The notes: a model not told the origin generated them from the sequence alone. 64,000 nucleotides of DNA from Phycisphaeraceae bacterium (GCA_029260635.1 JAJDCW010000038.1:745-64744), one strand, 5' to 3'. Counted from the first letter of the stretch, positions 29,719 through 64,000 are shown. Program-made: numbers and translations.

Positions 29719-31227
29719 CTACAGATAACTCATGGCGGTCAGGTCCGCCGATCCGGATTCCAGATTTACTATCATGTACCGCAGCGCATCGCAGAGGTGA
29801 TCCGGCCCGTCTTTGACGGGGTCTTCACGCCGCGGGTTATTTATATCAAAGTGGTACCGCCGCATGGCTTCGATGAGTCGGTTGCACCGGGGGTGTATGT
29901 ACAGTGTTTGCCGGTCAAGCCTTCGGCGGATGCGTTCGATCCCGTCTCGTAGCGTTGATCGTTTTGTTTGCACGGTGTGGCCCAGTTTGCGCAGGGCCTG
30001 GACGTCACTGATTCCCGTATGGCTGTTGCGCTGGTTGCCCGCGGGATCGACACCTAACCAGGCGGGATGTGGCCATCCGTACAGCGCGGCCTGCTGGCCA
30101 ATGGCAGCCACATGCTGGTCGAATGTGATACCCGCCCGCAGATACTCGTCCATGATATGGACGACTGTTTGGTTGCTATCGATATGGTTATTATAAACAC
30201 GGGCCCAGAGCATGACGGTGGGGTTGCGAAGGCCAAAGTCCATGCCGCCGATCCAGAATTGTTTGCTGCTTTCCAAGTCCTCCTCACGGACGTGGAGGGC
30301 CGGGTCGAACTGGGGATAAACACAATCGCTGACCTCAGGCTGTCGGCACATCATCTCGACGGACCACGCATGTCGACTGGTCCGTTTCCACTGCTGCACA
30401 AGGTCATCGACCGGGATAAATCCGATTGCGGATTTGGCTCGGCCCCGGCAATCGTCCCACAGGACGCACCCCTCGCAGGGGCGCTCATCCGGGCAGCGCT
30501 CGATGACATCCATCGCGGTCCACTTGAAAAGTCTTGACTCGCCGGGCGCGTCTGTTTGCAGGTCAGCGGTGATTCCCGCCATCAGGCCGAACGGCCGGTG
30601 CATGGTGGACAGGGCCTCTACGGCACCACGGACGTACTTGTCGCCGCACCGGCCGGATCGTGTGACCATCTGGGCGGCCTCCCAGACGCCGGGCTCGAAC
30701 TCCTCGACCTCGTCGCAGCGAAGCTTCTGCACGCGTACGCCCCGAACAGAGCGTTGTGACCCGGCGAGGAGTTGCACGTTGCTGCCGTTGGAAAGCGCGA
30801 CCCGCCGTTGTGTTGGTTCGCCGTCAAGCAGTCCACGGAACCAGGGCTTCTCAAACAGGGCGACCAGGTGCTCAAACATCTTCGATGACTGCTCAAGTGA
30901 GCCGCCTAGGATGCGGACCTGAATACCGGGTTTGAACACCAGGTCAAGGAGCGTGGCGGCCGCTCCGAGCATGGTCTTGCCCCCGCCCCGATTCGCCCAA
31001 ACGACCGCATCTTTGTTGATTGCGTTGTTGCCTGACGGGTCCGGTTCGAAAAATGTGTGTGTCAGGTAGTCGAAGGGGGCGCTGCTGCCGGGCACCAGAG
31101 GTATACGCGGCACGACCATGCCTAGTGCCGCCTGAGTAAAACGGTGCAGTTGCCTCGGGGTTTTTGGTTCTAGTTTGATTAGTTCATGGCAGTCATCGAT
31201 GCGGGGGGTCGATGATCGCTTATTCAT
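29719..31227 (-). CDS. phage terminase large subunit (TerL)
   Basis: Walker A WANRGGGKTMLGA and Walker B LRCDEVEEF. C-terminal RNaseH-like nuclease motifs IGGMDFGLRNPTV and GVDPAG. The ATG at 31227 lies inside the last codons of the upstream gene (GATGAATAA). Confidence 0.85.
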   Translation of the reverse strand: MNKRSSTPRIDDCHELIKLEPKTPRQLHRFTQAALGMVVPRIPLVPGSSAPFDYLTHTFFEPDPSGNNAINKDAVVWANRGGGKTMLGAAATLLDLVFKPGIQVRILGGSLEQSSKMFEHLVALFEKPWFRGLLDGEPTQRRVALSNGSNVQLLAGSQRSVRGVRVQKLRCDEVEEFEPGVWEAAQMVTRSGRCGDKYVRGAVEALSTMHRPFGLMAGITADLQTDAPGESRLFKWTAMDVIERCPDERPCEGCVLWDDCRGRAKSAIGFIPVDDLVQQWKRTSRHAWSVEMMCRQPEVSDCVYPQFDPALHVREEDLESSKQFWIGGMDFGLRNPTVMLWARVYNNHIDSNQTVVHIMDEYLRAGITFDQHVAAIGQQAALYGWPHPAWLGVDPAGNQRNSHTGISDVQALRKLGHTVQTKRSTLRDGIERIRRRLDRQTLYIHPRCNRLIEAMRRYHFDINNPRREDPVKDGPDHLCDALRYMIVNLESGSADLTAMSYL

Positions 31228-31696
31228 CAGATGTCTCGATGGATTCGATGACACGGGTGGGGTGATCTCCCTCGATTGAATCCTGATAGAGCAGATTGCG
31301 TAAGGAATCGATCCCGGATTCCGATACGATGTCTGAAGGAGCGATTGTAATCTCTGTGTCGATGTCTGCCCGCTTCATTTCAAGTTTCAAAAGATCGACA
31401 CAGGCCCGGCGGGCGTTTTCCAGCCCGGCCTTGCTGTCGTCGGGTTGGTTAGTGGCCAGCTCGATCAGCCGGCCGGCCGCGATCAGCCTGTACCGGCTAA
31501 GCAGCAGTTGAGTTTGCAGATCGGCCAGCACGCACAGGCCCGCAAGGCACCGGTGGTTGGTTTCATCTTGTATCCATTGTGACAGGCTGTCGGGTGACAG
31601 CGCGTACTTGCTGTGAAGAGCGGTCAGGTCGAAGTCTGCGTTGATCAGGTCTTTGATGAGTGCCGACCGGCGTTTGGCACTGATTTTTCTAGGCAT
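31220..31696 (-). CDS. terminase small-subunit-like protein (positional call)
   Basis: A 158-aa protein directly upstream of TerL and translationally coupled to it. It has a basic N-terminus (MPRKISAKRRSALIKDL) and an acidic tail. No diagnostic motif. Confidence 0.45.
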   Translation of the reverse strand: MPRKISAKRRSALIKDLINADFDLTALHSKYALSPDSLSQWIQDETNHRCLAGLCVLADLQTQLLLSRYRLIAAGRLIELATNQPDDSKAGLENARRACVDLLKLEMKRADIDTEITIAPSDIVSESGIDSLRNLLYQDSIEGDHPTRVIESIETSDE

Positions 31697-31723: not shown

Positions 31724-32371
31724 TTAAGTTAAGGGCTGTGGCGCTGTGTCGGGCTCGCCGCTTGCGGGTTTTACCTGTTCGATGAGTTTCATCAGGGCCT
31801 GTTCACGCGGACCTTCGTATTGACGGAGGGCGAGGTCCAGCCGTGATTTTTCTTCGGGCTTGAGGAAAAAAAAGACCGCGACCGGCATCTGATCGAGGGG
31901 CCTGGGTGGACGTGGGGTGGGGGGATGATCCTTGAATTCCAGATACTTCTTGATCTGTTCGACACGTTCGGGCAATAGGCGGGTGAGTCGTTTGATTCCG
32001 TGCTGATCGGCAAGGCGACTGAGAAGCTTCGCGCGTTTACGAGGATCGTCCTGTCCCTGCAAGCGGTTGAGTGTTGCCAGAAGCAGCAGGGCTTCCTGGT
32101 CATCTGCCTGCCATACAACACACTCGGCAGAGTCTTTGCCCGCCTCTTTCAATGCCCGGGCTCGATGATGGCCATCGAGGATCTGGTAATAGTCATTGGC
32201 ACCTGGCGGGCAGTTGAAATCAGGGTCACGAAACGGGCGGACAATCAATGGAGGGTATCGCCCCGTACGTTGGATGTGGCTGGCCAATTTGTCTACCAAC
32301 GCCTCGGGCATCACGTTGCTGTTGTTCGGGTGCGCTCGCAGCTGGTTCAATGGAATTGTTTGTGTATTCAT
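31724..32371 (-). CDS. ParB N-terminal (ParB/sulfiredoxin-like nuclease) domain protein
   Basis: Sequence LRAHPNNSNVMPEALVDKLASHIQRTGRYPPLIVRP...YQILDGHHRARALKEAG. Confidence 0.75.
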   Translation of the reverse strand: MNTQTIPLNQLRAHPNNSNVMPEALVDKLASHIQRTGRYPPLIVRPFRDPDFNCPPGANDYYQILDGHHRARALKEAGKDSAECVVWQADDQEALLLLATLNRLQGQDDPRKRAKLLSRLADQHGIKRLTRLLPERVEQIKKYLEFKDHPPTPRPPRPLDQMPVAVFFFLKPEEKSRLDLALRQYEGPREQALMKLIEQVKPASGEPDTAPQPLT

Positions 32372-32380
32372 ATGTATGAT

Positions 32381-33175
32381 TTACGGAACAAGGGCCGAGT
32401 TGTCGTGTAGGTAGTACACAGGGTCCAGCATCAGACGCTCTCGGGCAGCTTGTAGATGAGTGGATGGGTCGGTGCTGTGAGCAATACTCCGGCCATCGTT
32501 CTGCCTGTACCAGCGGTAGAGTTCTTTGTAGAACCAATCTCGTGTGCTGGTACTAAGCGATTTGATTCTCTGGCTGAGTTGAGGCGTCAAAGCCAGGCTG
32601 ACCGTGTTTAGTCCAATGGATTGCATAGCTTGAATGAGTCTTGCGTCGCAGGCGTGTTGGGGCCGGGGGTAGGCGGTCATGCCGGCACGCTGGAAGAACG
32701 GGTTGACTCGGCCCATCGCCGCGAGGGCTTCGGTATAGCGCGTGGTGGGTGTTTGTAGCGCGGCCCTTACCAGGCGGACCGCTAAGCCGATGCCGCGCCA
32801 GCATGGGTGGACGACGACCCGGCTGATCACACGGACCTCTAGGTTTAAGAGCGTCGCCTGCTGTCGGGGTGTCAGCCAGTTGCCGTAACGGTCATTCAGG
32901 GCGTAGTTTCGCATGGTGCAAGACAAGCTGGGTAACGATTCCAGCAGTACCGCGACAGGTTGATCGCGTGCCGGAGTGCTGGTGAATCTATCCGTGGCTG
33001 TATGTGCGGACCGAACCAGAGTCAGGACCCGCGTGGCGGTCGCGGGGCGGTCGGCCCGGTAGTGATGTTCTTTTAAGCCCTTGTAGTCGGTTAAGGTGCC
33101 GATTCTTAGCCTGAGTTTGTCACCGGGGTCGGCCCGGGAGATCGATGTGAAACGCTGTTGTATATCCGATGTCAT
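32381..33175 (-). CDS. hypothetical protein with GNAT-acetyltransferase-like core motif
   Basis: ISRVVVHPCWRGIGLAVRLVRAAL matches the acetyl-CoA-binding R/Q-x-x-G-x-G/A motif context of GNAT. The rest is unrecognised. There is a 5-nt gap to the upstream ATPase gene. Confidence 0.45.
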   Translation of the reverse strand: MTSDIQQRFTSISRADPGDKLRLRIGTLTDYKGLKEHHYRADRPATATRVLTLVRSAHTATDRFTSTPARDQPVAVLLESLPSLSCTMRNYALNDRYGNWLTPRQQATLLNLEVRVISRVVVHPCWRGIGLAVRLVRAALQTPTTRYTEALAAMGRVNPFFQRAGMTAYPRPQHACDARLIQAMQSIGLNTVSLALTPQLSQRIKSLSTSTRDWFYKELYRWYRQNDGRSIAHSTDPSTHLQAARERLMLDPVYYLHDNSALVP

Positions 33176-33180
33176 CGTGA

Positions 33181-33849
33181 CTACTTCTCGATCAGGTCAA
33201 GCGACTCGCCCAGATGTTTTTCGATGAGTGTGTCGGGTGACAGGGCTTCCAGGAGGTCGTCGTGTGTGGTGGCGGCGACGAAGCAGGCCCCAGAGCGCGT
33301 GACCCATCTGCGGACATTGCGAGCGATGGCTTTGGCGGTGGTCCGGTCGAGTGTGGAGCAGAACTCGTCCGCAAGGATGATGCTCAATTGATCGGATCGG
33401 ACCTTGGCTTCGGTCATAGCCATGGCCTGAGCCAGGCGCAGCCGGTAGCGTTGGCCGTCGGATAGCTGCGAGGGTTTACGGAGCATGACGAAGGCGTCGT
33501 TCAGCCCCGCGAGGCTAAGAAGACGGAGTACATCACTGAGTGGTCGTTTAGGGAAGACGTCCACGAGGGGGCGGTCTTCGATCGCTGGCATCGAGTTGAA
33601 ATTGAGGGCGTGCGTAAGTTCCTCGTGCTTGAGTTGTTCGTGGATCAGTTGGAGCACCGTGGACTTGCCGCTGCCGCTGGCCCCCGTGACAAAGATTAGT
33701 CGGCTGGGGGACAGATTCAGGCTGGTTTCGGGGATCAACTGGATGGAGCGTTTCTGATCGATACCCAGGCCGAACATCGCGGCGACCTCCAGGACATGGG
33801 GGGTCGGATCAACGGCGGACGGGACGCTGTGATTGAGCGTGATCTGCAT
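33181..33849 (-). CDS. stand-alone ABC-type ATPase (single NBD, no TM domain)
   Basis: Walker A GASGSGKST, signature LSDGQRYR, Walker B ILADEF and H-loop TTHD. GGAGG sits 5 nt upstream of the ATG. Confidence 0.8.
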   Translation of the reverse strand: MQITLNHSVPSAVDPTPHVLEVAAMFGLGIDQKRSIQLIPETSLNLSPSRLIFVTGASGSGKSTVLQLIHEQLKHEELTHALNFNSMPAIEDRPLVDVFPKRPLSDVLRLLSLAGLNDAFVMLRKPSQLSDGQRYRLRLAQAMAMTEAKVRSDQLSIILADEFCSTLDRTTAKAIARNVRRWVTRSGACFVAATTHDDLLEALSPDTLIEKHLGESLDLIEK

Positions 33850-33956: not shown

Positions 33957-34373
33957 CTAGACAAACAGTCGAGCCGTAGCGCGAACCGTACTCATATGGT
34001 CCCTGACCTTGTGGAGAGACTGGCCGGATATTTCTGCTGTCTTGCGCATGCTTTGGCCGTTGAGGACGACCTGCTTGGCGGTGGCGCGGACCTCGGGCGG
34101 GAGCGTGTTCATTTGCAGGGCGACAAACTTGAAGTGCTTTTTTGACAAGCGTTTAATAATTGATTGGGCACGGCGCTGCAGGCACCGTGCGGGTAATTGA
34201 TACAGCCGAGCGAGCTGTGCCATGGGCAGATTCCCGTCAAGAACCTGCTCGATGAGCAACTTGTCATCTGAAGGCAGATATTCAGCCAGGGCTCGAAGTT
34301 CATCGATCTGACGACGCCTGTTGTGGCGAAGTGCGTGTGCCTGGTCGGAGAGATTGTTCAGGGCGTGCTGCAT
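33957..34373 (-). CDS. small DNA-binding protein with two tandem sigma70-region-4/LuxR-like HTH modules
   Basis: The two modules are LPSDDKLLIEQVLDGNLPMAQLARLYQLPARCLQRRAQSIIKRL and LPPEVRATAKQVVLNGQSMRKTAEISGQSLHKVRDHMSTVRA. It is the first gene of the minus-strand phage operon. Confidence 0.6.
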   Translation of the reverse strand: MQHALNNLSDQAHALRHNRRRQIDELRALAEYLPSDDKLLIEQVLDGNLPMAQLARLYQLPARCLQRRAQSIIKRLSKKHFKFVALQMNTLPPEVRATAKQVVLNGQSMRKTAEISGQSLHKVRDHMSTVRATARLFV

Positions 34374-34428
34374 GGGGCTTGCAAATATTGTTTGTATGGT
34401 ATATGTTAGGTATTAGACCGGGGACCTG

Positions 34429-34445
34429 ACCCCTTGTCAAGGGGT
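34429..34445. promoter_or_regulatory. perfect palindrome ACCCCTT-GTC-AAGGGGT in the divergent promoter region (candidate operator)
   Basis: 7+7 bp inverted repeat 30 nt upstream of the repressor ATG and 56 nt upstream of the dual-HTH gene. It is flanked by AT-rich -10-like sequence. Confidence 0.4.
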
Positions 34446-34474
34446 TGTTCAGAGTTTTTTTAACACTGGGATAA

Positions 34475-52512: not shown

Positions 52513-54132
52513 TTAATCCATCGATTCGTCGTGCGACTCGATATTCAATTCCTTGATCTTTTTATTAAGCGTGTTGCGGTTGATCCCCAGGAAGTCTGCG
52601 GTGCGGACCTTGATGCCGTTGTTGTGTGACAGCGCTTCGCGGATGAGCTGCTTTTCTATCTCGCCGACCACCAGGTCATAGACCTGGCCTTCGCAGGACT
52701 GGAACTCGCGAACCGCGTGCTCGGAAAGCCGTGCCGCCAGTGATTCGATCGACGTGTCGGTCGTCTCGGACCGGGTTTGCTTTGAGAACAAGCGTATCTG
52801 AAGCGGCAGCAGGTCAACTGATAAATCTTCGCCGGTCGATAAGACCACCGCCCGTTCCATCGCGTTCTCGAGTTCACGCACGTTGCCGGGCCAGGGGTAT
52901 CTCAGCAGGGTATTCAAGACATCGCGGTTGATTTTCCGCAGCCCGCGTTGATTCTCGGTGTTGTACTTATCGAGAAAAAAATCGATCAGGCGGGGGATGT
53001 CTTCCCGCCGTTTACGCAATGGCGGCAGGTTGATCTGGACCACGTTCAGTCGGTAGTAAAGGTCTTCGCGGAATGTGCCTTTGCGTACCTCGTCTTCAAG
53101 ATCAAGGTTGGTCGCCGCGATGATCCGCGTATCGACCTTGACCGTGCGGTGGTCACCCACACGCTCGAACTCGCGCTCCTGAAGAACGCGCAGGAGCTTG
53201 ACCTGGAGCTGGGGGTCCAGGGTCCCGATCTCGTCGAGGAATATCGAGCCACCCTCTGCGGCCTCGAACCGACCGACCTTGTCTTTGGTTGCGCCCGTAA
53301 AAGCGCCTCGGACGTGGCCAAACAATTCTGACTCCAGCAGCTGCGGCGACAAGGCACCGCAGTTGATCCGGATCAGGGGCTGGTCGGCCCGTGGTGAATT
53401 AAAGTGGATGGCCTTGGCGATCAACTCCTTACCACACCCGGTCTCACCCAGAAGCAGAACGGTTGCCCGGCTGCTGGCGACCTGACCAATCATCGCCAGG
53501 ACGTCCAGCATGGCTGAGCTGGAACCGATGATATTGTCGAACTTGTACTTGCCCCGAAGGTTGTCCCGCAGCAACTGCGTCTCTTCAAGCCAGTGCCCTT
53601 TTTCGACCTGGATCAGGTTGTGGATCCGGATGGTCTGGGCAATCGAGCCGGCGACGATGGTCAGTAGCCTGGTATCGGCGTGCAGGTGCTCATCGTCGAT
53701 ATAGGGCTTGTCGATACTGATGGTCCCGACGGTCTGGCCGCCATCATTCACAGGGACACAGATGAAGCTGATCGGCTTCGGTTCATGGCCAGCCTCGTCG
53801 AGGTCTCGGCTGCCCGTGCGGTTCAGGAACTCAGGATGACTTGCGATGTCTTTGATCACGGCGGGCTCACCCGAAGCCAGCACCTGCCCGGTCACCCCTT
53901 CACCGACGGCGTAGCGCCCCCTTTGCTGCTCTTGGGTACTTAATCCGGTACTCGCCACGATGCGCAACTGACCAGACGCCTGGTCCCATAAAACCAGTGC
54001 AGATCGCTGGATATGTAATTTTTCACTCAACAGCGACATGACACGTTGAAAGAGTTGGCTCAGCTCTAGACCATCGCCAAGGATTTGGCTGATCTGCTCC
54101 AGTATGTCTAATTCTTGTTCAGATCGATGCAT
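52513..54132 (-). CDS. sigma54-dependent transcriptional activator (GAF sensor + AAA+ + Fis-type HTH; NifA-like architecture)
   Basis: Motifs LLGETGCGKE, ESELFGHVRGAFTGA and GGSIFLDEIG. C-terminal HTH RTADFLGINRNTLNKKIKEL. The N-terminal 170 aa are GAF-like. Confidence 0.9.
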   Translation of the reverse strand: MHRSEQELDILEQISQILGDGLELSQLFQRVMSLLSEKLHIQRSALVLWDQASGQLRIVASTGLSTQEQQRGRYAVGEGVTGQVLASGEPAVIKDIASHPEFLNRTGSRDLDEAGHEPKPISFICVPVNDGGQTVGTISIDKPYIDDEHLHADTRLLTIVAGSIAQTIRIHNLIQVEKGHWLEETQLLRDNLRGKYKFDNIIGSSSAMLDVLAMIGQVASSRATVLLLGETGCGKELIAKAIHFNSPRADQPLIRINCGALSPQLLESELFGHVRGAFTGATKDKVGRFEAAEGGSIFLDEIGTLDPQLQVKLLRVLQEREFERVGDHRTVKVDTRIIAATNLDLEDEVRKGTFREDLYYRLNVVQINLPPLRKRREDIPRLIDFFLDKYNTENQRGLRKINRDVLNTLLRYPWPGNVRELENAMERAVVLSTGEDLSVDLLPLQIRLFSKQTRSETTDTSIESLAARLSEHAVREFQSCEGQVYDLVVGEIEKQLIREALSHNNGIKVRTADFLGINRNTLNKKIKELNIESHDESMD

Positions 54133-54406: not shown

Positions 54407-55882
54407 ATGAGCCACACGGCCGAACACGCAATCTCAGACACAGTGCCTTCTGCCTTGGTTGAACTGCTGATCGAAGAGCATCAGGCGAGTACCGAGCCTC
54501 GGTTGCGCAGACTCTGGGATTATTACCGCAACCCTTCCAAGCGGGAAACGGGGGGAAAACTCAGTCACCTGGCACAAGAGGTGGGCCTGCCCAAGCGGTT
54601 GGCCCGATCAGGCGGCGGGGATTCCACAAGCGCAGTGGCCAGCCGAGAGGTCGTGATCGAGAACGACATCGCCTGGCGGATGCACACACACGTGGATTTT
54701 ATGTTTGGCAAGCCCCTGTCGATTCAGAGCACGGTTAAAGACCCGGCCCGGGCGAGAGCGATCCAACGCTTCCTGCAAAAAGTCATCGCGTCAAATGGTG
54801 GATCGAGATTCTTTCAGGATCTGGGCCTGCTGGGCTCTATCTACGGGTATGTGGATGTCCTGGTCCGCGTGGCTGACATCAACGAAACACCGGTGGATGG
54901 CGATTCGTCAGCGGCGGATCGGGTCGTGCTTGAAACCATCGAGGCCCCGCGTGCCATCCCGCTGCTGGATTCCCGGGATTACCGTCAACTCGACGCCTAC
55001 GTCCTGCACTTCCGCCAGAGAACGACACAGGTCGAACAAAACCATTTCTTATCAAGGGTTCGCAACCGCGTCCTTGGCGGAGTGGGACGTAGGCAGCGGG
55101 TGGTGGTTGAGCATACCGAGGTCTGGACAGCACAAACCCATCAGAACTTTGTCGGGAAAGAGGGGGTGCCGATCGCCGACCGAACGCTTGTCGGTCAGGG
55201 CCTGAACCGGCTAGGCCGGATCCCCGTTGTCCATATCCAGAATCTGTCACAGCCGTTTTTCTATGAGGGGCTCAGTGAGGTTGAACCGTTGATCCCGTTG
55301 CAGGACGAGTTGAACACGCGCCTGTCTGACCGGGCGAACCGGGTGACCTTCCAGTCGTTCAAGATGTATCTGGGCAAGGGGATCGAGAAGTTTACCGAAC
55401 GGCCCGTCGGCCCCGGTCAGATGTGGGCGACGGATAACCCGGACGCATCGATCACCGAATTTGGTGGCGATGGGAGCAACCCGTCTGAGGAAGAACACAT
55501 CCGTGAGATGCGCGAGGCGATGGATAAGGCCAGCGCTGTCAACCCGCTTGCCGCGGGCGTGCTGCGGTCCAAGGTCGGCAACCTTACCAGCGAGAACGCG
55601 CTGCGCATCGTGATGATGGGGTTGCTGGCCAAGGTTGACAAGAAGCGGCTGACCTATGGTGACGGTATCGAACAAGTCTGTGAGATGGTGCTCCACGCCG
55701 CCGACGTGTACGGCCTATTCCCCAACCTTCCGGAAGAACGCGGGGTCCGACTGGATTGGGCCGAACCCCTGCCGGACACCGACTCACAGCTGCTCCGTAA
55801 CGCGCTTCTAAAACTCGAAGCGGGCGTGCCCCGTCAACAGGTCTTGACCGAGTTGGGATACGCCGATCAGGCCGGAACATAA
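54407..55882 (+). CDS. phage portal protein (positional plus size call)
   Basis: A 491-aa protein immediately upstream of the scaffold and major capsid genes, with an acidic, helix-rich C-terminal half. I recognise no strict motif. Confidence 0.6.
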   Translation: MSHTAEHAISDTVPSALVELLIEEHQASTEPRLRRLWDYYRNPSKRETGGKLSHLAQEVGLPKRLARSGGGDSTSAVASREVVIENDIAWRMHTHVDFMFGKPLSIQSTVKDPARARAIQRFLQKVIASNGGSRFFQDLGLLGSIYGYVDVLVRVADINETPVDGDSSAADRVVLETIEAPRAIPLLDSRDYRQLDAYVLHFRQRTTQVEQNHFLSRVRNRVLGGVGRRQRVVVEHTEVWTAQTHQNFVGKEGVPIADRTLVGQGLNRLGRIPVVHIQNLSQPFFYEGLSEVEPLIPLQDELNTRLSDRANRVTFQSFKMYLGKGIEKFTERPVGPGQMWATDNPDASITEFGGDGSNPSEEEHIREMREAMDKASAVNPLAAGVLRSKVGNLTSENALRIVMMGLLAKVDKKRLTYGDGIEQVCEMVLHAADVYGLFPNLPEERGVRLDWAEPLPDTDSQLLRNALLKLEAGVPRQQVLTELGYADQAGT

Positions 55883-55948
55883 AACGGTAACGGATACGAA
55901 CAAACAGATGGGCCGACGCCCACGAACCCTTTGAACCAGGAAGACGAC

Positions 55949-56476
55949 ATGACGGACAGTGTAATGAATGAGACAACTCATCAGGCAGACACAATCGGAG
56001 AAGATTTGGTTGATCCGGCGACAAGCCCGGACAAGCTGGTGCCTGTGAGCGAGGCGATCCGTTATCGCAAGCGAGCTCAGGCCGCCGAGCAACAGCTCGA
56101 AGCGCTCCACGGAGAATTAGATACAGCTCGGACAAGGTTGTCCGAAGCGGATCAAACCATCGTGGGGTTGGAACGTCAGCAGAAAGTCGATGCGTTATTG
56201 ACCGAAGCCGATGTGATCGATCTGGAGACCGCCCGCCTGCTTACCGAACAGGCGGTGTCCACGATGGACGAGGCGGACGTCGAACTGGCCGTTAAAGACC
56301 TAAGACGCCACAAGCCATACCTGTTCCGACGCAGGCAGAGCCGGGCCGCTTCCGCGATGGCGCCCAACATCGACTCACTTGACCACAACCCGACCGAACA
56401 AGCTGCCGAGAAGGCGACTTTGTCGGGGGATCGTCGTGACCTGCTTCGCTATCTACGTCTGCGCCGCCAGCAATAG
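55949..56476 (+). CDS. phage scaffolding-like coiled-coil protein
   Basis: AIRYRKRAQAAEQQLEALHGELDTARTRLSEADQTIVGLERQQKVDALL lies between the portal and capsid genes. AGGAAG sits upstream of the ATG at 55949. Confidence 0.5.
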   Translation: MTDSVMNETTHQADTIGEDLVDPATSPDKLVPVSEAIRYRKRAQAAEQQLEALHGELDTARTRLSEADQTIVGLERQQKVDALLTEADVIDLETARLLTEQAVSTMDEADVELAVKDLRRHKPYLFRRRQSRAASAMAPNIDSLDHNPTEQAAEKATLSGDRRDLLRYLRLRRQQ

Positions 56477-56546: not shown

Positions 56547-57716
56547 ATGCCATTTACAGGAAAAGCCACTTACACCGCAGGGGCCAGTCTCCCGGAACTA
56601 GTCGAAGACGTCTCCGACATCATCAGCATCGTAAGCCCCTTCGAGACGCCTTTGCTGGACCACCTCGGCGATCCGCAACGCACCGCAACCAGCACGGTTC
56701 ACGAGTGGTTGGAGGACTCGCTGCTACCCAATACGGATACCATCCAGGACCCCGTGATCTCATCCCCTCTGACCGAAACAACTTTTACCGTTGGTAACGG
56801 GGGCCGTTTCCGTGTTGGCGATCAGATACAGGTCACCGGCTCCAGAGAGGTCATGTTTGTTACCGGTGTCTCCAGCAACGATTTGACCGTGATACGCGGG
56901 TACGGTGGAACGACATCGGAGGGCCTGGTGGATGACGCGACGATCCGTATTCTGGGCAACGCAGCACTTGAGGGGGATGATGCGCCGGCGTCACGGTTCA
57001 CCAGCCGGGTCCGCAAGACTAACTACACGCAGATCTTCACTTCGACGGTGGAGGTGTCGGGCTCTCAACTTGCCTCCAAACAGATCGGATTGTCTGACGA
57101 GTTGGATTATCAGAAGCAGGAGCGTCTGCGTGAACTGATCCGAGACCTTGAAAATTGCGTAATCAACGGTGTCGCCGCGATGTCGAACCCCGAGGGCAAT
57201 GCATCGATACGTCGGACCATGCAGGGGATCATCCCGTTCATACAGACGAATGTATATGAAAGTGGGGCCGGGGGCTTCCCCTCGGGCTCCGGAGCGGGTT
57301 CCGATGAGCTGACGGAAGAACAGATCAATGCCGCGCTGAGGCGGGTATGGGACGAATCGTCCGGTTCGATCGACACGATCCTGGTTGGTGGGCTCCAGAA
57401 GCGGCGGATCAACAGCTTTATTACTGGCAGTCGGGGTTATAGCGAGAGTTCGACACGATTCCGCGATCTGGTCAGCACATATGAATCCGATTTCGGCGTC
57501 TGCCGGGTAGTTCTCTCTCGCTGGGTCCCTCAAGACACCGTTCTGCTTTTGGATTCTTCTCGGATCGATGTGCTGCCCCTGGCCGGCCGAAGTTTCGGAT
57601 TCAAAAAACTGGCCTCGACCGGCGACAGCGAGACCGGGCAGGTGATCGGCGAGTACTCGCTGGAGCTGCGTAACGAGCTGGGGCACGGGCTGATCCGTGG
57701 CCTCGCGACGAACTGA
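56547..57716 (+). CDS. phage major capsid protein (DUF5309/SU10-type, HK97-fold family)
   Basis: The N-terminus TAGASLPELVEDVSDIISIVSPFETPLLDHLG resembles the conserved start of this capsid family. The 389-aa size and the position after the scaffold also fit. Confidence 0.65.
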   Translation: MPFTGKATYTAGASLPELVEDVSDIISIVSPFETPLLDHLGDPQRTATSTVHEWLEDSLLPNTDTIQDPVISSPLTETTFTVGNGGRFRVGDQIQVTGSREVMFVTGVSSNDLTVIRGYGGTTSEGLVDDATIRILGNAALEGDDAPASRFTSRVRKTNYTQIFTSTVEVSGSQLASKQIGLSDELDYQKQERLRELIRDLENCVINGVAAMSNPEGNASIRRTMQGIIPFIQTNVYESGAGGFPSGSGAGSDELTEEQINAALRRVWDESSGSIDTILVGGLQKRRINSFITGSRGYSESSTRFRDLVSTYESDFGVCRVVLSRWVPQDTVLLLDSSRIDVLPLAGRSFGFKKLASTGDSETGQVIGEYSLELRNELGHGLIRGLATN

Positions 57717-57821: not shown

Positions 57822-58460
57822 ATGAATTTTTCAACAGACCGGGACCTGCTTGCGATCGAGCCCGCGGTATTTGAAGACGTACCGTTTGCGGCCCAGCGCA
57901 GAGTGAGTGTAGTGGACGGGGTCGTCAGTGGGACAACGCTAACCAGTAATAGCGCGGATTTTGTATCCGCTCAGGTCGATGCGGGGGCGGTTCTTCTGAT
58001 CAGTGGTATCGCACACGAGGTTCTGACGCGTGTAGATGCCAACACACTTACGGTTTCCCTGCCGCGACCGCACAAGACCGACGCGGGCATCCCCGGCGGC
58101 GATGGCTCATCGTTGGAAGTCACCGTTCAGACCTTCTCTCCACAGGCGGAGCTGATCCATGACGGGCTGCTGAGGCTGCTGGGCATCGATCCGGATGACC
58201 CCGATTCGGTATTAGATGAGTCAGCGATCATCTCGCAGTCATTGATGGCTCGGCTGGAAGCGTTGGGAACACTTGAGGTTGTTTACTCCGGTGCGGCTTC
58301 CTTGATCGGTGACAACGACACCCTCCTGATGAAGGCGGGGGAGTATCGCAGGCGGTTCCGCCAGGCCTGTGCGGGAGCGCGTGTGTCGCTGGATACCGAT
58401 GGGGATGGTGTGGTGGATGAGCGATTGTCACTCGGGACGATCCGATTTTCTCGCGCCTAA
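57822..58460 (+). CDS. phage structural-module hypothetical protein
   Basis: Co-oriented, follows the capsid gene and has protein-like composition. Confidence 0.5.
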   Translation: MNFSTDRDLLAIEPAVFEDVPFAAQRRVSVVDGVVSGTTLTSNSADFVSAQVDAGAVLLISGIAHEVLTRVDANTLTVSLPRPHKTDAGIPGGDGSSLEVTVQTFSPQAELIHDGLLRLLGIDPDDPDSVLDESAIISQSLMARLEALGTLEVVYSGAASLIGDNDTLLMKAGEYRRRFRQACAGARVSLDTDGDGVVDERLSLGTIRFSRA

Positions 58461-58479
58461 GCGTATTGGCAGTGTACCA

Positions 58480-58860
58480 ATGGGGCATGACATGGTGACT
58501 TTTGATGACCAAACTTTATTTGGGCCGGGGCCTGCGCGGTTCAAGATCGGGCCAATCAAACTTCGGCACGCGATTCAGCACCCGCTCGGTTCGCGTGGGG
58601 TACGTATCGAACATCAAGGCACCGAGGCGAGGGAGTTCAGGCAGACTGGTGTTCTTATAGATGATACACCCGAGAGATTACAGGTGATAATTGACGCGAT
58701 CGAATCATACATTGATGGCTTGCCACACACACTGGTGGATAGCGTTGGCCGTACTTGGAATGACACGGTCATGCTGGAGGCGGAGGCTGACCCATTTGTG
58801 CGGGCCGGGGCGCGTTGGAAGGCTTCTTACCGAATCACATACCTGCAGGTCATCGTATGA
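58480..58860 (+). CDS. phage structural-module hypothetical protein
   Basis: The start was trimmed to MGHDMVTFDD to remove overlap with the upstream gene. The stop overlaps the next start (ATGA). Confidence 0.45.
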   Translation: MGHDMVTFDDQTLFGPGPARFKIGPIKLRHAIQHPLGSRGVRIEHQGTEAREFRQTGVLIDDTPERLQVIIDAIESYIDGLPHTLVDSVGRTWNDTVMLEAEADPFVRAGARWKASYRITYLQVIV

Positions 58861-59579
58861 GCAGTTTTGTCACGATCGATGCGACACAGGACATCTTCGA
58901 GCTGGTCCTGGCCCGACCGGTGATAACAGCCACCGGCGAACATCCGTGGTTGGTTCACCTCTGGTGGCGGGCACCCCTTCAGGGGGACCGGGTTGTGCAG
59001 ATTTACGTTCAGGATGAGTTGTATGACGTGTCACTTGATTCCTGGGCAAGAGCAATGTTTCTGGTGCTTGACCGCACACGAACCAACCGTATGGAGTTAC
59101 TGGCGGTGCCGGCGGGTGACCCCGAGGCGATCTGGCGTGCACAACCCGACCTGCTTAGGTCGTGGCAGCCGCGCGTGTCGGATGTGGCGGCGGTCTCTCT
59201 TATCCGCGACGAGACGCTGTCGGTTGATACACGGGTCGATGTTGAAGTGGATGGCGTTGTTATCGATTCGGGTTTGATGTGGTCTAATCAAGTGCATCGT
59301 TCAGATCCAGATGGAAACTTGGAGGCGGGCGATGTGGCCGGGCTGGGCCTGGGTATCGGCAATCTCGGTGCCGGCCGGCTGGGTTATGACGCGGCATCAT
59401 TGTGTTGGCGTCGAGACGATCTTCGGCAGGGCACATACGACATCGTAATCGGCGCGGTGGATTCGAGCGGCCACCCCGCGGCCGACCCATTGCTGCTTGA
59501 TGATGTTTTGATCGATGGTTTGCCTGGCCAAGTTGTAGGCCTGTCGATTGATCGGGCGTTCCAGATTTCCTGGGACTAA
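58857..59579 (+). CDS. phage structural-module hypothetical protein
   Basis: Start MSSFVTIDATQ forms an ATGA overlap with the upstream stop. Confidence 0.5.
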   Translation: MSSFVTIDATQDIFELVLARPVITATGEHPWLVHLWWRAPLQGDRVVQIYVQDELYDVSLDSWARAMFLVLDRTRTNRMELLAVPAGDPEAIWRAQPDLLRSWQPRVSDVAAVSLIRDETLSVDTRVDVEVDGVVIDSGLMWSNQVHRSDPDGNLEAGDVAGLGLGIGNLGAGRLGYDAASLCWRRDDLRQGTYDIVIGAVDSSGHPAADPLLLDDVLIDGLPGQVVGLSIDRAFQISWD

Positions 59580-59651
59580 TGATATTCAACGTCGTTTGAC
59601 TCAGACCCGGGAGTGTTATCCCGTGTGTCATGATGATCAGAGGAAAATATA

Positions 59652-60104
59652 ATGCCTATCCAGGAACTTACCCCCGATCAGATTGATAGTCTGGTCGGCA
59701 CGCGCCACCCCGAGACGGGCATCGAGTACCCGCCGAACGGTCTGCAACCTTACTACCACTGGTTGATCCGTGCGTTGCACCTGTTGGCGGAATCATCACT
59801 CGGGGCGTTACGGGTCGCGGAAGTCGACTCGTCAGACACAGCGATACAGATCGCACCCGGTCGGGTAAGCATCTCGGGGGTAGTGTTGGATTTTGCCGGC
59901 CAGGTCAGCGAGTTGGCTGCCTTTAACAACGACACCGCCTACATTTCGATATTCAATAATGCGGGGTCGCCTGGGATTTCTATTAGTGCCGACGCCAGCG
60001 GTTGGCCCGTTGGGTCACACATCAAGTTGGCGGAAGTTACGATCACGGCGGGGGTGATCAGCAACATCCTGGATCGTCGTATGGAAACCGTATTCAGTAT
60101 TTAG
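59652..60104 (+). CDS. phage structural-module hypothetical protein
   Basis: A 150-aa ORF with GAGGAAAA upstream of the ATG. Confidence 0.5.
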   Translation: MPIQELTPDQIDSLVGTRHPETGIEYPPNGLQPYYHWLIRALHLLAESSLGALRVAEVDSSDTAIQIAPGRVSISGVVLDFAGQVSELAAFNNDTAYISIFNNAGSPGISISADASGWPVGSHIKLAEVTITAGVISNILDRRMETVFSI

Positions 60105-60136
60105 CACTTCACGGTTTACCTGTTGGGTGGTTTACG

Positions 60137-62353
60137 ATGCAAATACACAAACACATTGATTTTCAGGTGCCCGGGTGGGGCGAGTACTCACAGGGACCGA
60201 CCACAGGGTCCAGCGCTCTGCTGACCCAATCCGATTCCGCCTCATTCCCGGACCGGCCGAGCCGGGACGGCATAGGTTTAGACGTGGCGATGTCGGTTGG
60301 CGATGAAGGCTCATATCTCACACACGATTTGGGCGCTGAGCAGTCGGCCCTACATGTCCGGCTGCTGCTGAATCCCCAGGGGGTCAGTGGGGGTTCGATT
60401 ACGTTGCTCGCGGGGTTGGATGGGGCGGACGTGGAGTCGATGCGTGTTTCGCTGGATGCAGACAGCGGCGACCTATTCGTCTGGTTCGCTGGCGGTACGA
60501 CGTTGTCTGCGTCGTTTGGCACCGGGATATTATGGCATTGCGTGGAGGTGGCGGTTGATACCGTGGCCGACCAGGCTGATCTATGGATCAACGGTGTGCC
60601 GGCCGATCAGGTGAATGCAGGCCTGTCGGCCGCAACGATTCAGACCATCCGGCTTGGTGCCGTCCACAAAGACACCAACGTGACCGGCAGCCTATATCTG
60701 GACGAAGTCGTCTTTGCGGACAGCTATATCGGACCGGTGATTGTCGCGCCGGGCGAATCACATGCGGGGGACCCCGCCCATTGGCTGGTTGTCTACAACT
60801 CCGCAGACCCGGACGCGGGAGCCTGGGCGGAAGCATATCGATTAGCCCGAAGCATCCCCTATGCAAACCTGTTGGGTCTTGCGTTGCCAACTGCTGAAAT
60901 CATCAGCACGTCGCAATACGCCGATCTTGTGACCAGGGTTGACGCTTACCTCTCTTTAAATCAGCTCGACGGCCAGATCATGGGTGTGCTGCTTGGTTAC
61001 CGTGTGCCGGGGTACATCGACTCGATCGGCGGGGGGATTTACGAGTCGGTGCCCGCGCAGATGCAGACTGCCAGCACGACACTCGGTCCCGCGTTAAATA
61101 CCCTGGCATCACCGGCCAGCTATGAGAGGCTCACGACTCCAGACCTCGCCGGCAAGCGGATGACCGCCAGGATCGACGGGCCTGATTTGGCCACCGCTAT
61201 TCAACTCATCGATCGGGCGACCGCGATTTGTGAAACACGTCTTAGCGCAGACGACGCATTGTTTTACTTCGATCCATTTGTTGGCGATGGCGCTGTCTAT
61301 CAGTCGGCATTCAATGACATGATCGACTGGATCACCGGTAACGGGGGGATGCAAACCCGGTTAAACATCGTCCTCAGCGGTGATCCAGGCGGCAATGAAG
61401 ATGCGGGATTCGAGACGGTATCGGGTGACGGGTTGTTCTGGGGCTGGTCACTAACGCTTCCTGATGCCGACATATTCACTGCGCCTGCGGGTCGACGCGC
61501 GCTCTGCGGGCAGGTGTATCTAGACGGAGCGTCGGCTACCACCCTGCGCAGTATGTCACCAGGCAATTGGGCGGACATACCTCTGGCGGCGGGCTATGCG
61601 GCTGTCGTCGCATCCTCGAGAAACAGCCCGGTGTTCTGGATACCCGATGCCGGCGCATTGTTTGATACGCTTACGCTTGGGTGGACACTCACGGAGGCGT
61701 GGTTTGTCGCGCAGCCGGTGATACGGGGCGGCTTCTATCTCGTCGGCGACCCCTTGATGACCATCGGGATGCCACGAACGGGTACCGAAGTCTTTGGCCC
61801 TCTCGAGAGCTTAAAAGACCTGGACACGGATTCGCCGGCATTCATACTGCCGGAAAGCGTTCGTGAACTCGATCTATTCAGCGCCGCCCCCGCCGAAGAT
61901 CAGGAGGCGGTCTACGTTGTTCGACATACGGACGAGATGGGACGCGCCGAATCATCTCCGACCTCCATTCGGATCACTCACGTCGACGGCCAATCTCTCA
62001 TGCCCCCGGCCATGCCGGTGTGGCCCGATGCTGCGGGTTGGATGGCTGATGTAGAAGAGGGACAGATTCGGCTTCTGACATGTTGGGCCGGACCGATTGC
62101 GGGGATGCGTGTCGGGTCCGTTGAGTTAATGGGTCAGCTCGAGGGCGGGGCGGAGGTCGTTACAGCGCAGGCGGCAATCAACCCACGGGATGATTACGTC
62201 TTGGTAATTGAACCCCTCCCCCCGGTACGCACAAGATACCGTTGGCGTGTGACATCGCCTGATGGCGTTGTAGAGTACACGGACTGGTCCGAGTACATCG
62301 ACCCAGCTTCGGAGCCCGCGTCTTCACTTCAGCAGATCGGAGCCAGCTATTGA
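60137..62353 (+). CDS. large phage tail/receptor-binding candidate: N-terminal LamG/ConA-like lectin fold + TIGR03790-like segment
   Basis: LWHCVEVAVDTVADQADLWINGV...LYLDEVVFADSYIGP is a LamG-like pattern. WLVVYNSADPDAGAWAEAYRLARSIPYANLLGLALP resembles the TIGR03790 family start. The ATG at 60137 is preferred over the 60002 extension. Confidence 0.55.
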   Translation: MQIHKHIDFQVPGWGEYSQGPTTGSSALLTQSDSASFPDRPSRDGIGLDVAMSVGDEGSYLTHDLGAEQSALHVRLLLNPQGVSGGSITLLAGLDGADVESMRVSLDADSGDLFVWFAGGTTLSASFGTGILWHCVEVAVDTVADQADLWINGVPADQVNAGLSAATIQTIRLGAVHKDTNVTGSLYLDEVVFADSYIGPVIVAPGESHAGDPAHWLVVYNSADPDAGAWAEAYRLARSIPYANLLGLALPTAEIISTSQYADLVTRVDAYLSLNQLDGQIMGVLLGYRVPGYIDSIGGGIYESVPAQMQTASTTLGPALNTLASPASYERLTTPDLAGKRMTARIDGPDLATAIQLIDRATAICETRLSADDALFYFDPFVGDGAVYQSAFNDMIDWITGNGGMQTRLNIVLSGDPGGNEDAGFETVSGDGLFWGWSLTLPDADIFTAPAGRRALCGQVYLDGASATTLRSMSPGNWADIPLAAGYAAVVASSRNSPVFWIPDAGALFDTLTLGWTLTEAWFVAQPVIRGGFYLVGDPLMTIGMPRTGTEVFGPLESLKDLDTDSPAFILPESVRELDLFSAAPAEDQEAVYVVRHTDEMGRAESSPTSIRITHVDGQSLMPPAMPVWPDAAGWMADVEEGQIRLLTCWAGPIAGMRVGSVELMGQLEGGAEVVTAQAAINPRDDYVLVIEPLPPVRTRYRWRVTSPDGVVEYTDWSEYIDPASEPASSLQQIGASY

Positions 62354-62403
62354 AAGCCTGTGCATCCCTTGGTCCTGTCCCGCGCGCCAATGTAATAGAT
62401 GGC

Positions 62404-64000
62404 GTGCAGCCATTCGTACTGATTAATGACACACCCGAGCCCCGGCTGTCGGTTGAATCATTCAAGGTGCGCGGCCCACTGGACCTGCGAACCGCAAGAA
62501 TCATGATGGATGAGCCGGTTGGTCCAGCCGGGGTGCCACAGGTGTGGTTGAACGCTCTGGTGGCAATCGCCTGGCCCGTCAGGCTCAATGATGATGAGAC
62601 CGCCTGGCCGGTCCTGATGCGCGGAGAGCTTAAGCAGGTCCAAGCGACAGATTCGAGTGCCCAGCACGACCGATGGTATGAACTCTCAGACTTGTGGGGA
62701 CAGGCCATATCACAGCCCTTGAATTCTATCCCACAACTCAACCCGGCCGGTTCGCTGATCACGCAACCGTATGGGGCGCTGATGATCGGCCGAGAAGGGA
62801 ATCGCTCGGCGGATCGATTCACGGTGAACGGCGAGCAGGTCCACGTCATCCAGCAGGAGTCGGGTTTGATGTGGACGGTTCAATCGGCACTTGAATACTT
62901 ATCCGCGTCAGGCAGCCTCGATCTCCTGCTGACCGGTCTCCCCAGAGAGATTGCTCACGCCGATCTGGATGACACGATCGATCTGACTAAACCCCTAGAC
63001 GGGTTGCTTGAAAACATGCTGACCGAGTGCGGGTTGGTCATCCAACGCGACATCGCACGTCAAGGCGGTTCTATCAGCGAGACCCGGGCGGTACGTCCTA
63101 CCGGGTCCGGGCGACCGATACGGGTCGTTTGGGCCAACGGTTTGCGGCCTCTGGGTGATGCCTTAAAGATATCGGTTGATAGGCCCGCACAACCCGCACA
63201 ACTCTGGACCGCCCGGGCAGGCGGTTGGGTTGTCGAGTCAACATTCGAGTTGGTCGGCGGTTGGGCCCCGGCTCTGGAAGGTCAGGCAGACGATGAATAC
63301 GACGAGAGCTTAAGCAGTGACTTTGCGACCTACGCCGATGTATACCGCAACTGGGTCCTCAATGAAGACGGGTTCTATACGCAGCCGCTATTTAATCGTG
63401 GCCCCGCGTATGACTTGGCTTTGTTGTTTGGCGAACCCGGCATCGACCCTCAACCGATTGCATTACAACCAAACTTGACACTCGACGATAAAGGTTCTCC
63501 CCTTGACCCGATTGTTCAGATGAGCACGGACAGCGGGTCGAACTGGTCCGTCTTTCCCAAGTCCAGCACGATCCTGAAGGACCGAGCAGGGGTTTATCTT
63601 GACTCACAATCTCTACCGACGACATTTCTAGCCGCCGCCAAGGCCGGCAGCGCGCGCCTGCGTGCGACCGCCAGCCTACGGAGCCCGCTACCCGTCGAAC
63701 AATCCCGGTGGAAAGGCAACGCCTTTACTTCGATCCTGCCGCCGCGGGTAGTCGACCTCGCGGAAACCCATCTATTTCATCGTGTCGATCAGAACAGTAT
63801 CCATTACGACAACATACATGCGGGGGCGCTGGTTGCGGATGAGGTGGATGACAGTCATCGGTTACTCGGTTCGCTTGTTAAACAGATGGATCACGGTTCG
63901 GAGGGCGGGCGAGCCACACTTGATCTGTCGGGTGCCTGGCCGCTGCTGCGAGTTGGTGATTGTTTGCGAGAGATACGTGGACCAGGTGTTGCGGCGGACG
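62404..64000 (+). CDS. phage structural protein (tail/baseplate candidate), partial, runs off the right edge
   Basis: Own translation. The frame is open from the previous stop to position 64000 (...LINDTPEPRLSVESFKVRG...DCLREIRGPGVAAD). It is not in the ORF track because it has no stop. The start is uncertain (GTG 62404, ATG 62503 or TTG 62350). Confidence 0.55.
   Translation, partial: MQPFVLINDTPEPRLSVESFKVRGPLDLRTARIMMDEPVGPAGVPQVWLNALVAIAWPVRLNDDETAWPVLMRGELKQVQATDSSAQHDRWYELSDLWGQAISQPLNSIPQLNPAGSLITQPYGALMIGREGNRSADRFTVNGEQVHVIQQESGLMWTVQSALEYLSASGSLDLLLTGLPREIAHADLDDTIDLTKPLDGLLENMLTECGLVIQRDIARQGGSISETRAVRPTGSGRPIRVVWANGLRPLGDALKISVDRPAQPAQLWTARAGGWVVESTFELVGGWAPALEGQADDEYDESLSSDFATYADVYRNWVLNEDGFYTQPLFNRGPAYDLALLFGEPGIDPQPIALQPNLTLDDKGSPLDPIVQMSTDSGSNWSVFPKSSTILKDRAGVYLDSQSLPTTFLAAAKAGSARLRATASLRSPLPVEQSRWKGNAFTSILPPRVVDLAETHLFHRVDQNSIHYDNIHAGALVADEVDDSHRLLGSLVKQMDHGSEGGRATLDLSGAWPLLRVGDCLREIRGPGVAAD

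Follow-up and report, generated by a model that had tools for sequence, protein, structure and literature searches.

Positions 31,724 to 33,849 of a 64,000-nucleotide stretch from Phycisphaeraceae bacterium (GCA_029260635.1, JAJDCW010000038.1:745-64744), here called the window, encode an ABC-type ATPase, a GNAT-fold acyl-CoA transferase-like protein, and a ParB/Srx N-domain protein, directly upstream of a candidate small terminase gene (TerS) and the large terminase gene (TerL). Sequence comparisons give good support to the view that the ATPase and the GNAT-fold protein together make up a single conserved enzyme, split here into separate genes, and that this pair, together with the ParB N-domain protein, forms a module accompanying TerL in tailed phages, archaeal proviruses, and cellular cassettes. 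It is likewise well supported that the operon forms the control-and-packaging arm of a phage-derived particle system that is split in two, fixed in the chromosome, and inherited vertically, and the element as a whole is a candidate gene transfer agent (GTA)-like system rather than a prophage carrying cargo. ATP-dependent DNA acylation coupled to packaging appears to be the likeliest mechanism. These four elements together (one enzyme, a terminase module, a split domesticated particle system, and acylation coupled to packaging) make up the best overall explanation of the locus, one that we consider probable by a modest measure.

The ABC-GNAT pair and its terminase partners

The three genes lie on the minus strand with gaps of 5 nt between the ABC and GNAT genes and 9 nt between the GNAT and ParB genes, as had been described in a reading of the window from its sequence only (the sequence-only reading), and the motifs quoted there are all present in the open reading frame (ORF) list. 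The translated ATPase carries FVTGASGSGKST, QLSDGQRYR, SIILADEF, and AATTHDD, with Walker A, the LSDGQ signature, Walker B, and the H-loop all intact; the 264-aa protein contains SRVVVHPCWRGIGLAVRLVRAAL; and the 215-aa protein contains ILDGHHRARAL, in which the GxxRxxA element lines up with the GERRYRA box of Spo0J. The ATPase matched Pfam ABC_tran (3.8e-10) and phrog_293 (3.5e-31), and its profile reached transporter-type nucleotide-binding domains (NBDs) in the PDB (ABCB1, OpuCA, LolD, and MJ0796; 1e-28 to 1e-19), although a strict phmmer search of the PDB at a cut-off of 1e-8 gave no match. The ORFs of the operon bear out the earlier description of an ATPase that has no membrane partner, second NBD, or coiled-coil insert: the operon holds none of these and no permease gene, and no permease was present in any orthologous cassette examined. 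The name “ABC transporter” that databases give to such proteins is wrong for this ATPase, which has no permease or transmembrane partner in the operon or in the orthologous cassettes.

The 264-aa GNAT-like protein had no match in Pfam, NCBIfam, or PADLOC; it matched phrog_886 (1.5e-12), a family that is mislabelled “ABC transporter ATP-binding subunit.” The ParB-like protein matched ParB_N at 7.8e-6, exactly the gathering score, and several ParB PHROGs at 1e-12 to 1e-14 (phrog_498 at 4.8e-14). It does not have the features of a ParABS system, as the cassette contains no ParA and the TIGR00180 score of 29.6 fell below the cut-off of 58.45; the ParB of the chromosome is encoded separately, at 24526–25644. 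Single-copy orthologues of each gene in 31 of 41 relatives and low dN/dS values (0.08–0.29 for the trio in one close genome pair) establish that the three are genuine genes and not chance ORFs. Scans against Pfam, PADLOC, PHROG, and NCBIfam assigned no well-characterised function to them, in keeping with the earlier statement that they match no named or characterised system.

Both domains occur in single ORFs in planctomycete f61 (4/4), f22, f35, f59, and f2/g32, as detected by jackhmmer from the window proteins. A fusion used as query returned hundreds of homologues, Bathyarchaeia included, many of them of fusion length and bearing the JGI name “ABC-type ATPase with predicted acetyltransferase domain”; we take this fused protein to be COG2401. 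The GNAT family comprises 1482 representative clusters, many of which are 450–580 aa long with a C-terminal GNAT domain. The two genes are also adjacent at all loci examined, and it is this adjacency, together with the fusions in many other genomes, that points to a single enzyme.

Linkage to the terminase is equally regular. In all five fusion contexts that were looked up, a TerL or TerL-like gene was the immediate neighbour or stood at a distance of one or two short genes. Fusion and TerL adjoin each other in an archaeal provirus that also encodes a tail tube and a head-tail connector; in other contexts the fusion lies within ∼2 kb of TerL, and in Gemmataceae it is two genes from a TerL-like protein. 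ABC-GNAT, usually with ParB, stands beside TerL at every cellular locus examined. As a side observation, f61 has a two-gene cassette (L034 9083–11640, L035, L048, and L049) in which the ABC~GNAT fusion is followed directly by TerL (412–428 aa); the flanks of the L034 cassette are host genes (arginase and adenylate cyclase). The Walker B region of the f61 TerL aligns as LILCEA rather than hhhhDE, and the same genomes have a single SU10 capsid gene elsewhere.

Homologues of the ATPase with ∼40% identity (E 1e-40) were found in 78 phage-collection records, among them SSU5-like phage-plasmids of enterobacteria, RHEph10-like phages of Rhizobium, and Pseudomonas Nickievirus; the window ATPase is 40% identical to genes annotated “ABC transporter” in RHEph10, SSU5, and hairong. 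The same phages carry GNAT-like homologues with 23–28% identity and the same invariant residues. Their annotated order is ParB, ParB, ABC, small ORF(s), GNAT-like, small ORF(s), a gene in the TerS position, TerL, and portal; the hairong record runs on to the capsid gene, and the RHEph10 record stops after the portal. Among 80 IMG/VR contigs retrieved with the ATPase alignment, ParB-ParB-ABC-GNAT-TerL was found in one orientation in 61, and the remaining 19 have the same order cut by contig ends. Between the ABC and GNAT genes of RHEph10 lies gp080 (L032 7630–7932), which encodes a Tad2-like (Thoeris anti-defence 2) protein (5e-23); an ASCH domain was sought in the small ORFs of the hairong and RHEph10 modules and was not matched.

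The SSU5/RHEph10/Nickievirus modules thus resemble the window trio in having a homologous ATPase and GNAT, a ParB_N partner, and a position directly upstream of TerS/TerL, with the ParB_N protein and TerL co-located in the same orientation, and they too are uncharacterised. They differ in that two ParB genes precede the ABC gene, whereas here a single ParB gene follows the GNAT gene, and in that TerL here is of a different lineage: it had no BLAST similarity to the hairong TerL, and among isolates it comes nearest to T5-like phages, with which it shares only 26% identity over the nuclease domain. Unlike the phage modules, the window cassette is chromosomally fixed, vertically inherited, and under an S24 repressor, and no portal or capsid gene comes directly after its TerL; the head genes lie 19 kb away, beyond mraY-murF-murE.

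These observations recast the earlier account of the trio. Its link to TerS/TerL recurs in phages and in cellular loci, and the outcome that would have counted against that account, genes that do not co-occur outside this genome, is countered by their massive co-occurrence in relatives, across the phylum, in 80 viral contigs, and in 80 species. The term “cargo” does not fit, as phages, archaeal proviruses, and cellular cassettes all keep ABC-GNAT as a core partner of TerL, in many cases in the form of one fused protein. Few gene sets associated with terminases are as widespread as ABC-GNAT, with or without ParB, and it is routinely mislabelled “ABC transporter.”

A vertically inherited cassette and its separate head arm

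The GNAT-like gene is single-copy in 31 of 41 related genomes, including 10/10 of the genus and 19/24 of the family, with identities of 63–72% within the genus, ∼50% within the family, and 40–49% within the order. The cassette, with S24 divergent from HTH-ABC-GNAT-ParB-TerS-TerL, is syntenic in relatives and, within the genus, occupies the same chromosomal site, with pilin-mraY-murF-murE on one side and FHA, amidase, and mqnA-like genes on the other; this order was also the commonest one among 80 species-level loci, all from Phycisphaerae or Planctomycetota. In one close genome pair, dN/dS across the cassette was 0.014–0.29, with dS (0.06–0.39) in the range of the flanking host genes. In a tree of ABC plus GNAT, each taxonomic family formed one clade, with 11 label changes, which is the minimum and was not reached in any of 200 shuffles; support for the order was 97%, and two phages fell outside. 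Across the phylum, the gene occurs as a single copy and its presence is all-or-none by family. The ParB gene is conserved in the cassettes of most Phycisphaerae and missing from those of f2 and f61, and the f2 cassettes also have no TerS. The cassette is thus vertically inherited, under purifying selection, and chromosomally fixed, a conclusion that is well supported. Separately, two cultured Poriferisphaera strains, ZRK32 (L108 8001–13914) and WC338 (L114), have the order GNAT, HTH, ABC, ParB, TerS, TerL, with no S24 gene detected near either cassette.

A second block of phage-type genes, the head arm (54407–64110), begins 19.1 kb from the repressor gene, with pilin, mraY, murF, murE, and other apparently cellular ORFs in between. 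The sequence-only reading had treated the region as phage or prophage; the element is instead fixed, vertically inherited, and split into two arms 19 kb apart with host dcw genes between them. The capsid protein is single-copy, with identities of 80–89% in the genus and 65–69% in the order, and its presence agrees with that of the cassette in 36 of the 41 relatives (27 with both, nine with neither); four of the five discordant genomes have the cassette and no capsid match, and three of these four have the portal. The distance between the arms varies from 12 to 130 kb among relatives. Head gene order is conserved, with some lineages keeping only portal-scaffold-MCP-h212, and at the phylum level SU10 capsid and cassette coincide in Phycisphaerae and f61. 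An initial notion of a capsid-less cassette was dropped after a scan of the whole window, in which the head genes proved to belong to the SU10_MCP and SPP1_portal families; nearly every search for the HK97 capsid (PF05065) and HK97 portal (PF04860), made in the genome itself and in ten complete relatives, came back negative. In G009, two HK97-type capsid matches of equal score (C2:1784343–1785170 and 2465873–2466700) lie far from the cassette and are probably two copies of an unrelated prophage.

As in the GTAs of Alphaproteobacteria (RcGTA type and Caulobacter GTA), the packaging and head genes are chromosomal, vertically inherited, under purifying selection, distributed over split loci, and accompanied by host-type regulators. 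Among the ORFs scanned, none beside either arm is an integrase, excision, or replication gene. The gene families are unrelated to those of RcGTA and the Caulobacter GTA (SU10-type capsid, SPP1-type portal, and a distantly T5-like TerL), and tail genes were not identified. To our knowledge, known GTAs do not carry an ABC-GNAT-ParB module.

The selection data contradict the notion that the locus is an inert remnant of a decaying prophage, which we find scarcely credible: frames are intact across the bacterial order, dN/dS stays at 0.014–0.29, the catalytic motifs of TerL and GNAT are kept, and the cassette tree is congruent with taxonomy, even though no integrase, replication, or lysis module lies beside the operon, host genes split the element, and parts are missing in some lineages (the head arm in G041, and ParB and TerS in f2).

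The distribution of the cassette also bears on a role in defence or counter-defence, either as an acyl-based restriction-modification-like pair with TerL as nuclease-translocase or as an anti-restriction or superinfection-exclusion cassette. Defence islands are patchy, whereas this cassette is single-copy, at a fixed locus, and all-or-none by family; it is wired to a repressor rather than constitutive, a matching capsid arm co-occurs with it, and in phages the adjacent TerL is the phage’s own packaging enzyme. The logic of a modification enzyme joined to an ATP-dependent nuclease does fit, as does the two-gene form of f61 amid host genes, and phage base modifications commonly shield DNA from restriction (PMC7824862). 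PADLOC returned no system, only partial matches of the ATPase domain (mad3, 2e-14, and mad8), and none at all for GNAT, TerS, or TerL, and we regard a defence function as quite improbable. Of the three roles that had been proposed from the sequence, a DNA-modification or packaging-specificity module is the best, while anti-defence and superinfection exclusion gain no support from a cassette that yields no PADLOC system and is all-or-none by family.

Predicted acyl transfer and its possible substrates

In its AlphaFold2 (AF2) model (pLDDT 87.5), the GNAT-like protein adopts a GNAT fold with an inserted helical region and a C-terminal strand that folds back and carries an invariant Tyr. The acyl-CoA motif R127-x-x-G130-x-A132 (R-x-x-G-x-A/G), together with R89, N111, R119, E149, and Y254, is invariant across bacteria, archaea, and phages, and this conservation of the motif and of the candidate catalytic residues argues for an active acyl-CoA transferase. 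Foldseek gave a probability of 1.00 to many GNATs; its best PDB matches were NAT10 (2.6e-5), Mu Mom (7.5e-5; 8bv8, rank 4), Kre33, and TmcA (8.9e-5), followed by tRNA-acetylating GNAT toxins, and polyamine and arylalkylamine N-acetyltransferases were also among the fold matches. Viral matches (BFVD) included NAT_SF proteins and GNAT-endonuclease-type fusions, the latter probably being, to judge from PMC7824862, Mom-type fusions. Sequence profiles matched generic GNAT chains over motif A (5e-4 to 4e-3).

Several of these matches suggest what the pair may do. The sequence-only reading did not recognise the combination; in addition to the JGI name for the fusion, section 3.4.7 of PMC7824862, after Iyer et al. 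2013 (Aravind group), gives an ABC ATPase and GNAT pair as computationally predicted to acylate a DNA base. TmcA, NAT10, and Kre33 likewise join an ATPase to a GNAT acyl-CoA transferase that acts on a nucleic-acid base, but in these enzymes the ATPase is a RecD-like helicase domain within the same polypeptide and the substrate is RNA, whereas the ATPase here is an ABC NBD; a Pfam scan gave no match to the TmcA-family domains GNAT_acetyltr_2, DUF1726, and tRNA_bind_2, and the likeness is one of mechanism by analogy and not of family membership. Mu Mom shares the fold and is a DNA adenine N6-acyl modifier that acts late in infection; it needs neither an ATPase nor a ParB as partner and has no link to terminase genes, and neither Pfam nor profile searches found sequence-level similarity between it and the GNAT-like protein, the likeness being confined to the Foldseek match. 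A precedent for the third gene is found in thymine dioxygenases (5mYOX plus ParB), for which experiment has established a ParB-fold protein as the obligatory activator of a phage DNA-modifying enzyme, with terminases among the commonest pathway neighbours (PMC13229309); with the ParB-methyltransferase fusions of phrog_498, these place a ParB/CTPase fold as the partner of a DNA-modifying enzyme near terminase genes. Here the partner of ParB is the ABC-GNAT pair rather than a dioxygenase or methylase, and a dependence on ParB would be predicted by analogy, with ParB missing in f2 and f61. GNAT toxin-antitoxin systems (TacT, AtaT, and KacT) consist of a toxin of ∼160–180 aa and an adjacent RHH antitoxin; the 264-aa protein, with an extra helical region and in an ATPase-terminase operon, resembles them at the level of the fold only.

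The proposed mechanism would begin when the S24 repressor is lost, perhaps through RecA-stimulated self-cleavage, upon which the operon would be transcribed. A dimer of the ABC ATPase, through ATP binding and hydrolysis, would engage nucleic acid and present a base, and the GNAT subunit would move an acyl group from acyl-CoA to the exocyclic amine of a DNA base, a step modelled on cytidine acetylation by TmcA/NAT10 (RNA, ATP-dependent) and on Mu Mom (DNA). ParB would be the DNA-loading or activating partner, and coupling of the reaction to TerS/TerL, in time or physically, would make the DNA entering capsids marked DNA. In its most specific form, this would make ABC-GNAT an ATP-driven DNA N-acyltransferase seated on the terminase that acylates DNA during threading, and the planctomycete element a damage-inducible GTA-like system exporting marked chromosomal DNA; we put this form forward as a doubtful possibility.

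The near-universal TerL linkage, with genes that sometimes overlap, could alternatively reflect a terminase accessory or packaging-specificity factor, in which ABC-GNAT would recognise DNA or regulate TerL, either acting like a TerS or acetylating TerS, TerL, the portal, or packaged polyamines, with ParB marking the packaging start. The f61 cassette, an ABC~GNAT fusion and TerL with no TerS-like gene, would suit such a role, as would the polyamine and arylalkylamine N-acetyltransferases among the fold matches and a weak match of the ATPase to phrog_800, “terminase small subunit”; that match spans the P-loop portion only, however, and phages and most Phycisphaerae cassettes have a separate gene in the TerS position as well. 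Strict conservation of the acyl-CoA motif and candidate catalytic residues favours catalysis over scaffolding, and the published precedents for a ParB partner are DNA-modifying enzymes (PMC13229309). An accessory role is judged unlikely, though it is the strongest of the competitors.

A pair that modifies RNA, as a split analogue of TmcA/NAT10 with a target such as tRNA (for example ac4C on the CAU-anticodon tRNA), would account for the best structural matches, in that NAT10, Kre33, and TmcA also join an ATPase to a GNAT, and hairong has a tRNA-Met(CAT) gene 2 kb upstream of its module. No tRNA gene was associated with the planctomycete loci read, the ATPase is of the ABC and not the RecD-like class, GNAT_acetyltr_2 and tRNA_bind_2 were not matched, and the constant partners, ParB and TerL, handle DNA; we assign this reading a low probability.

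Several points weigh against DNA acylation within a particle system. The likeness to NAT10, TmcA, and Mom is at the fold level and its scores are modest (TM ∼0.37), with generic GNATs close behind, and sequence profiles of the GNAT-like protein reach generic GNATs only; the ATPase belongs to the transporter-type NBDs, and no DNA-binding element can be recognised in it; DNA, RNA, protein, and polyamine are all candidate substrates; and the searchable literature yielded no biochemical or genetic test of an ABC-GNAT module in any system. Particle production, content, and transfer are predictions from the genes, and induction by DNA damage (the SOS response) is suggested by the S24 fold, with the candidate operator missing at recA. 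Moreover, f11, f22, f35, and f59 have the ABC-GNAT cassette and no SU10 capsid, and the complete Phycisphaeraceae genome G041 has a full seven-gene cassette (L046 7422–12808) and no portal or SU10 capsid match, for which reason the cassette may work without this head, or with another.

DNA acylation coupled to packaging nevertheless remains the favoured mechanism. The split, single-ParB, domesticated, repressor-controlled form of the window differs from the module known only as a computational prediction, and selection has maintained it for a very long time in an element that is cellular and inherited vertically, from which it follows that the module is an integral part of packaging-related function and not disposable cargo. 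This places it in a candidate GTA-like system in Planctomycetota, a phylum for which the searchable literature yielded no description of such a system. If the module acylates DNA, its reaction would add a new enzymatic modification of DNA and might serve as a tool, and if that DNA is exported by GTA-like particles, the new base modification would have a cellular and not only a viral role. With cultured carriers (the Poriferisphaera strains) and phages with a homologous module that infect laboratory strains of E. coli and Salmonella, both questions are directly testable.

Control region, operon neighbours, and head genes

The operon spans 5.6 kb and comprises the sigma-like HTH, ABC, GNAT, ParB, TerS-like, and TerL genes, with S24 divergent; its features and those of the head arm are listed in Table 1.

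Table 1. Positions of the packaging operon, its control region, and the head arm within the window.
Feature	Coordinates	Strand	Remarks
ABC-type ATPase, 222 aa	33181..33849	minus	soluble minimal NBD; ATPase half of the ABC-GNAT pair
GNAT-fold acyl-CoA transferase-like protein, 264 aa	32381..33175	minus	phrog_886 family
ParB/Srx N-domain protein, 215 aa	31724..32371	minus	GxxRxxA kept (DGHHRARA); short C-terminal domain
Small-terminase candidate, 158 aa	31220..31696	minus	assigned by position only; overlaps TerL start; conserved
Large terminase TerL, 511 aa, packaging ATPase-nuclease	29719..31254	minus	Terminase_6C 4.5e-5; phrog_10250, phrog_2, phrog_5653
HTH protein, 138 aa, sigma-region-4-like modules	33957..34373	minus	first gene of the operon; weak matches only
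XRE-HTH/peptidase S24 self-cleaving repressor, 280 aa	34475..35317	plus, divergent	Peptidase_S24 3.8e-14; HTH_3 3.9e-10
Divergent control region	34374..34474		leftward TTGACA...TAATAC promoter-like elements and inverted repeat
GAF/sigma-54-interaction/HTH_8 enhancer-binding protein	52513..54132	minus	divergent from portal; adjacency kept in six family genomes
SPP1-type portal	54407..55882	plus	PF05133 1.8e-16; phrog_64 2.5e-25; syntenic in relatives
Scaffold-like protein	55931..56476	plus	weak phrog_2303 and PF06810 (6e-4 to 7e-4); position between portal and capsid genes conserved
SU10-type major capsid protein	56547..57716	plus	PF17236 5e-89; phrog_1328 1.2e-81
Five more conserved head/particle genes (212, 254, 150, 783, and 586 aa)	57822..64000	plus	last gene runs to 64110, past the window

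The TerL protein is single-copy in the genome, and throughout the order it retains Walker A, Walker B, motif III, and the three Asp motifs of the nuclease. The 158-aa protein upstream of it is a candidate TerS by position; its AF2 model (pLDDT 70.9) starts with three short helices at the N-terminus and continues into long coiled-coil helices, and searches of Pfam, PHROG, PDB, and Foldseek gave no match. The 138-aa HTH protein matched sigma70-ECF at 1.1e-3, a distant orthologue matched Sigma70_r4 at 8e-8, and the protein, conserved in the cassette, is a putative activator of the operon. The genes beyond TerL are of host type (FHA, amidase, and mqnA-like). Just past TerL, an FHA protein and an Amidase_2 protein with a signal peptide (28305–29676) keep their position in 4/5 genus genomes (the amidase was undetected in L015), and a lysis role of the Amidase_2 protein for the particle system is possible.

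The S24 protein has a visible AAG cleavage site (Ala-Gly), the Ser of GASMEP, and the Lys of KR. It is the sole Peptidase_S24 match in the genome, which is 92% complete and in which no canonical LexA was found, and it is kept beside the operon in relatives. The divergent region contains a degenerate inverted repeat, GTTCAG-N6-TTTAAC (34447–34464), for which the consensus of relatives is GTTCAA-N6-TTGAAC, and both the promoter-like elements and the repeat are conserved across genera. This candidate operator is absent upstream of recA, and no exact copy was found elsewhere in the genome; a role of the S24 protein as a global LexA is thus unsupported, and the repressor is treated as dedicated to the cassette because the repeat is missing upstream of recA. 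The recA gene itself is split over contigs C13 and C54. The palindrome CCCCTTGTCAAGGGG, which had been picked out in the sequence-only reading, is unique in the genome yet not conserved in relatives and is probably no operator. Within the 107-bp gap between the HTH and ABC genes, an AT-rich inverted repeat, TTTCAAAAATTATTCAAC (33859–33880), resembles the S24-side operator and may be an internal promoter or operator.

In the head arm, the five genes that follow the capsid gene had no family match. The enhancer-binding protein is a possible regulator of this arm; no sigma-54 promoter consensus was found near either arm, and the total number of matches was below chance. A TTCGCC..TTTCGCT motif upstream of the ABC and portal genes was considered as a shared element and set aside, as it is not conserved in relatives. 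The octamer GTGCGCAC occurs in just 50 copies in the 3.9-Mb genome, and no sigma-54 promoter consensus lies near its copies. Two copies ∼110 bp apart lie just 3′ of the S24 gene (35420–35427 and 35530–35537), and a third (54189–54196) lies between the enhancer-binding-protein and portal genes. The octamer is likewise placed in other genera (L020 12750/12863, L026 7319/7456, L046 7380/7489, L222 12114, L223 6108, L230 6119, and L228 12412) and may be a shared cis-element that links the two arms.

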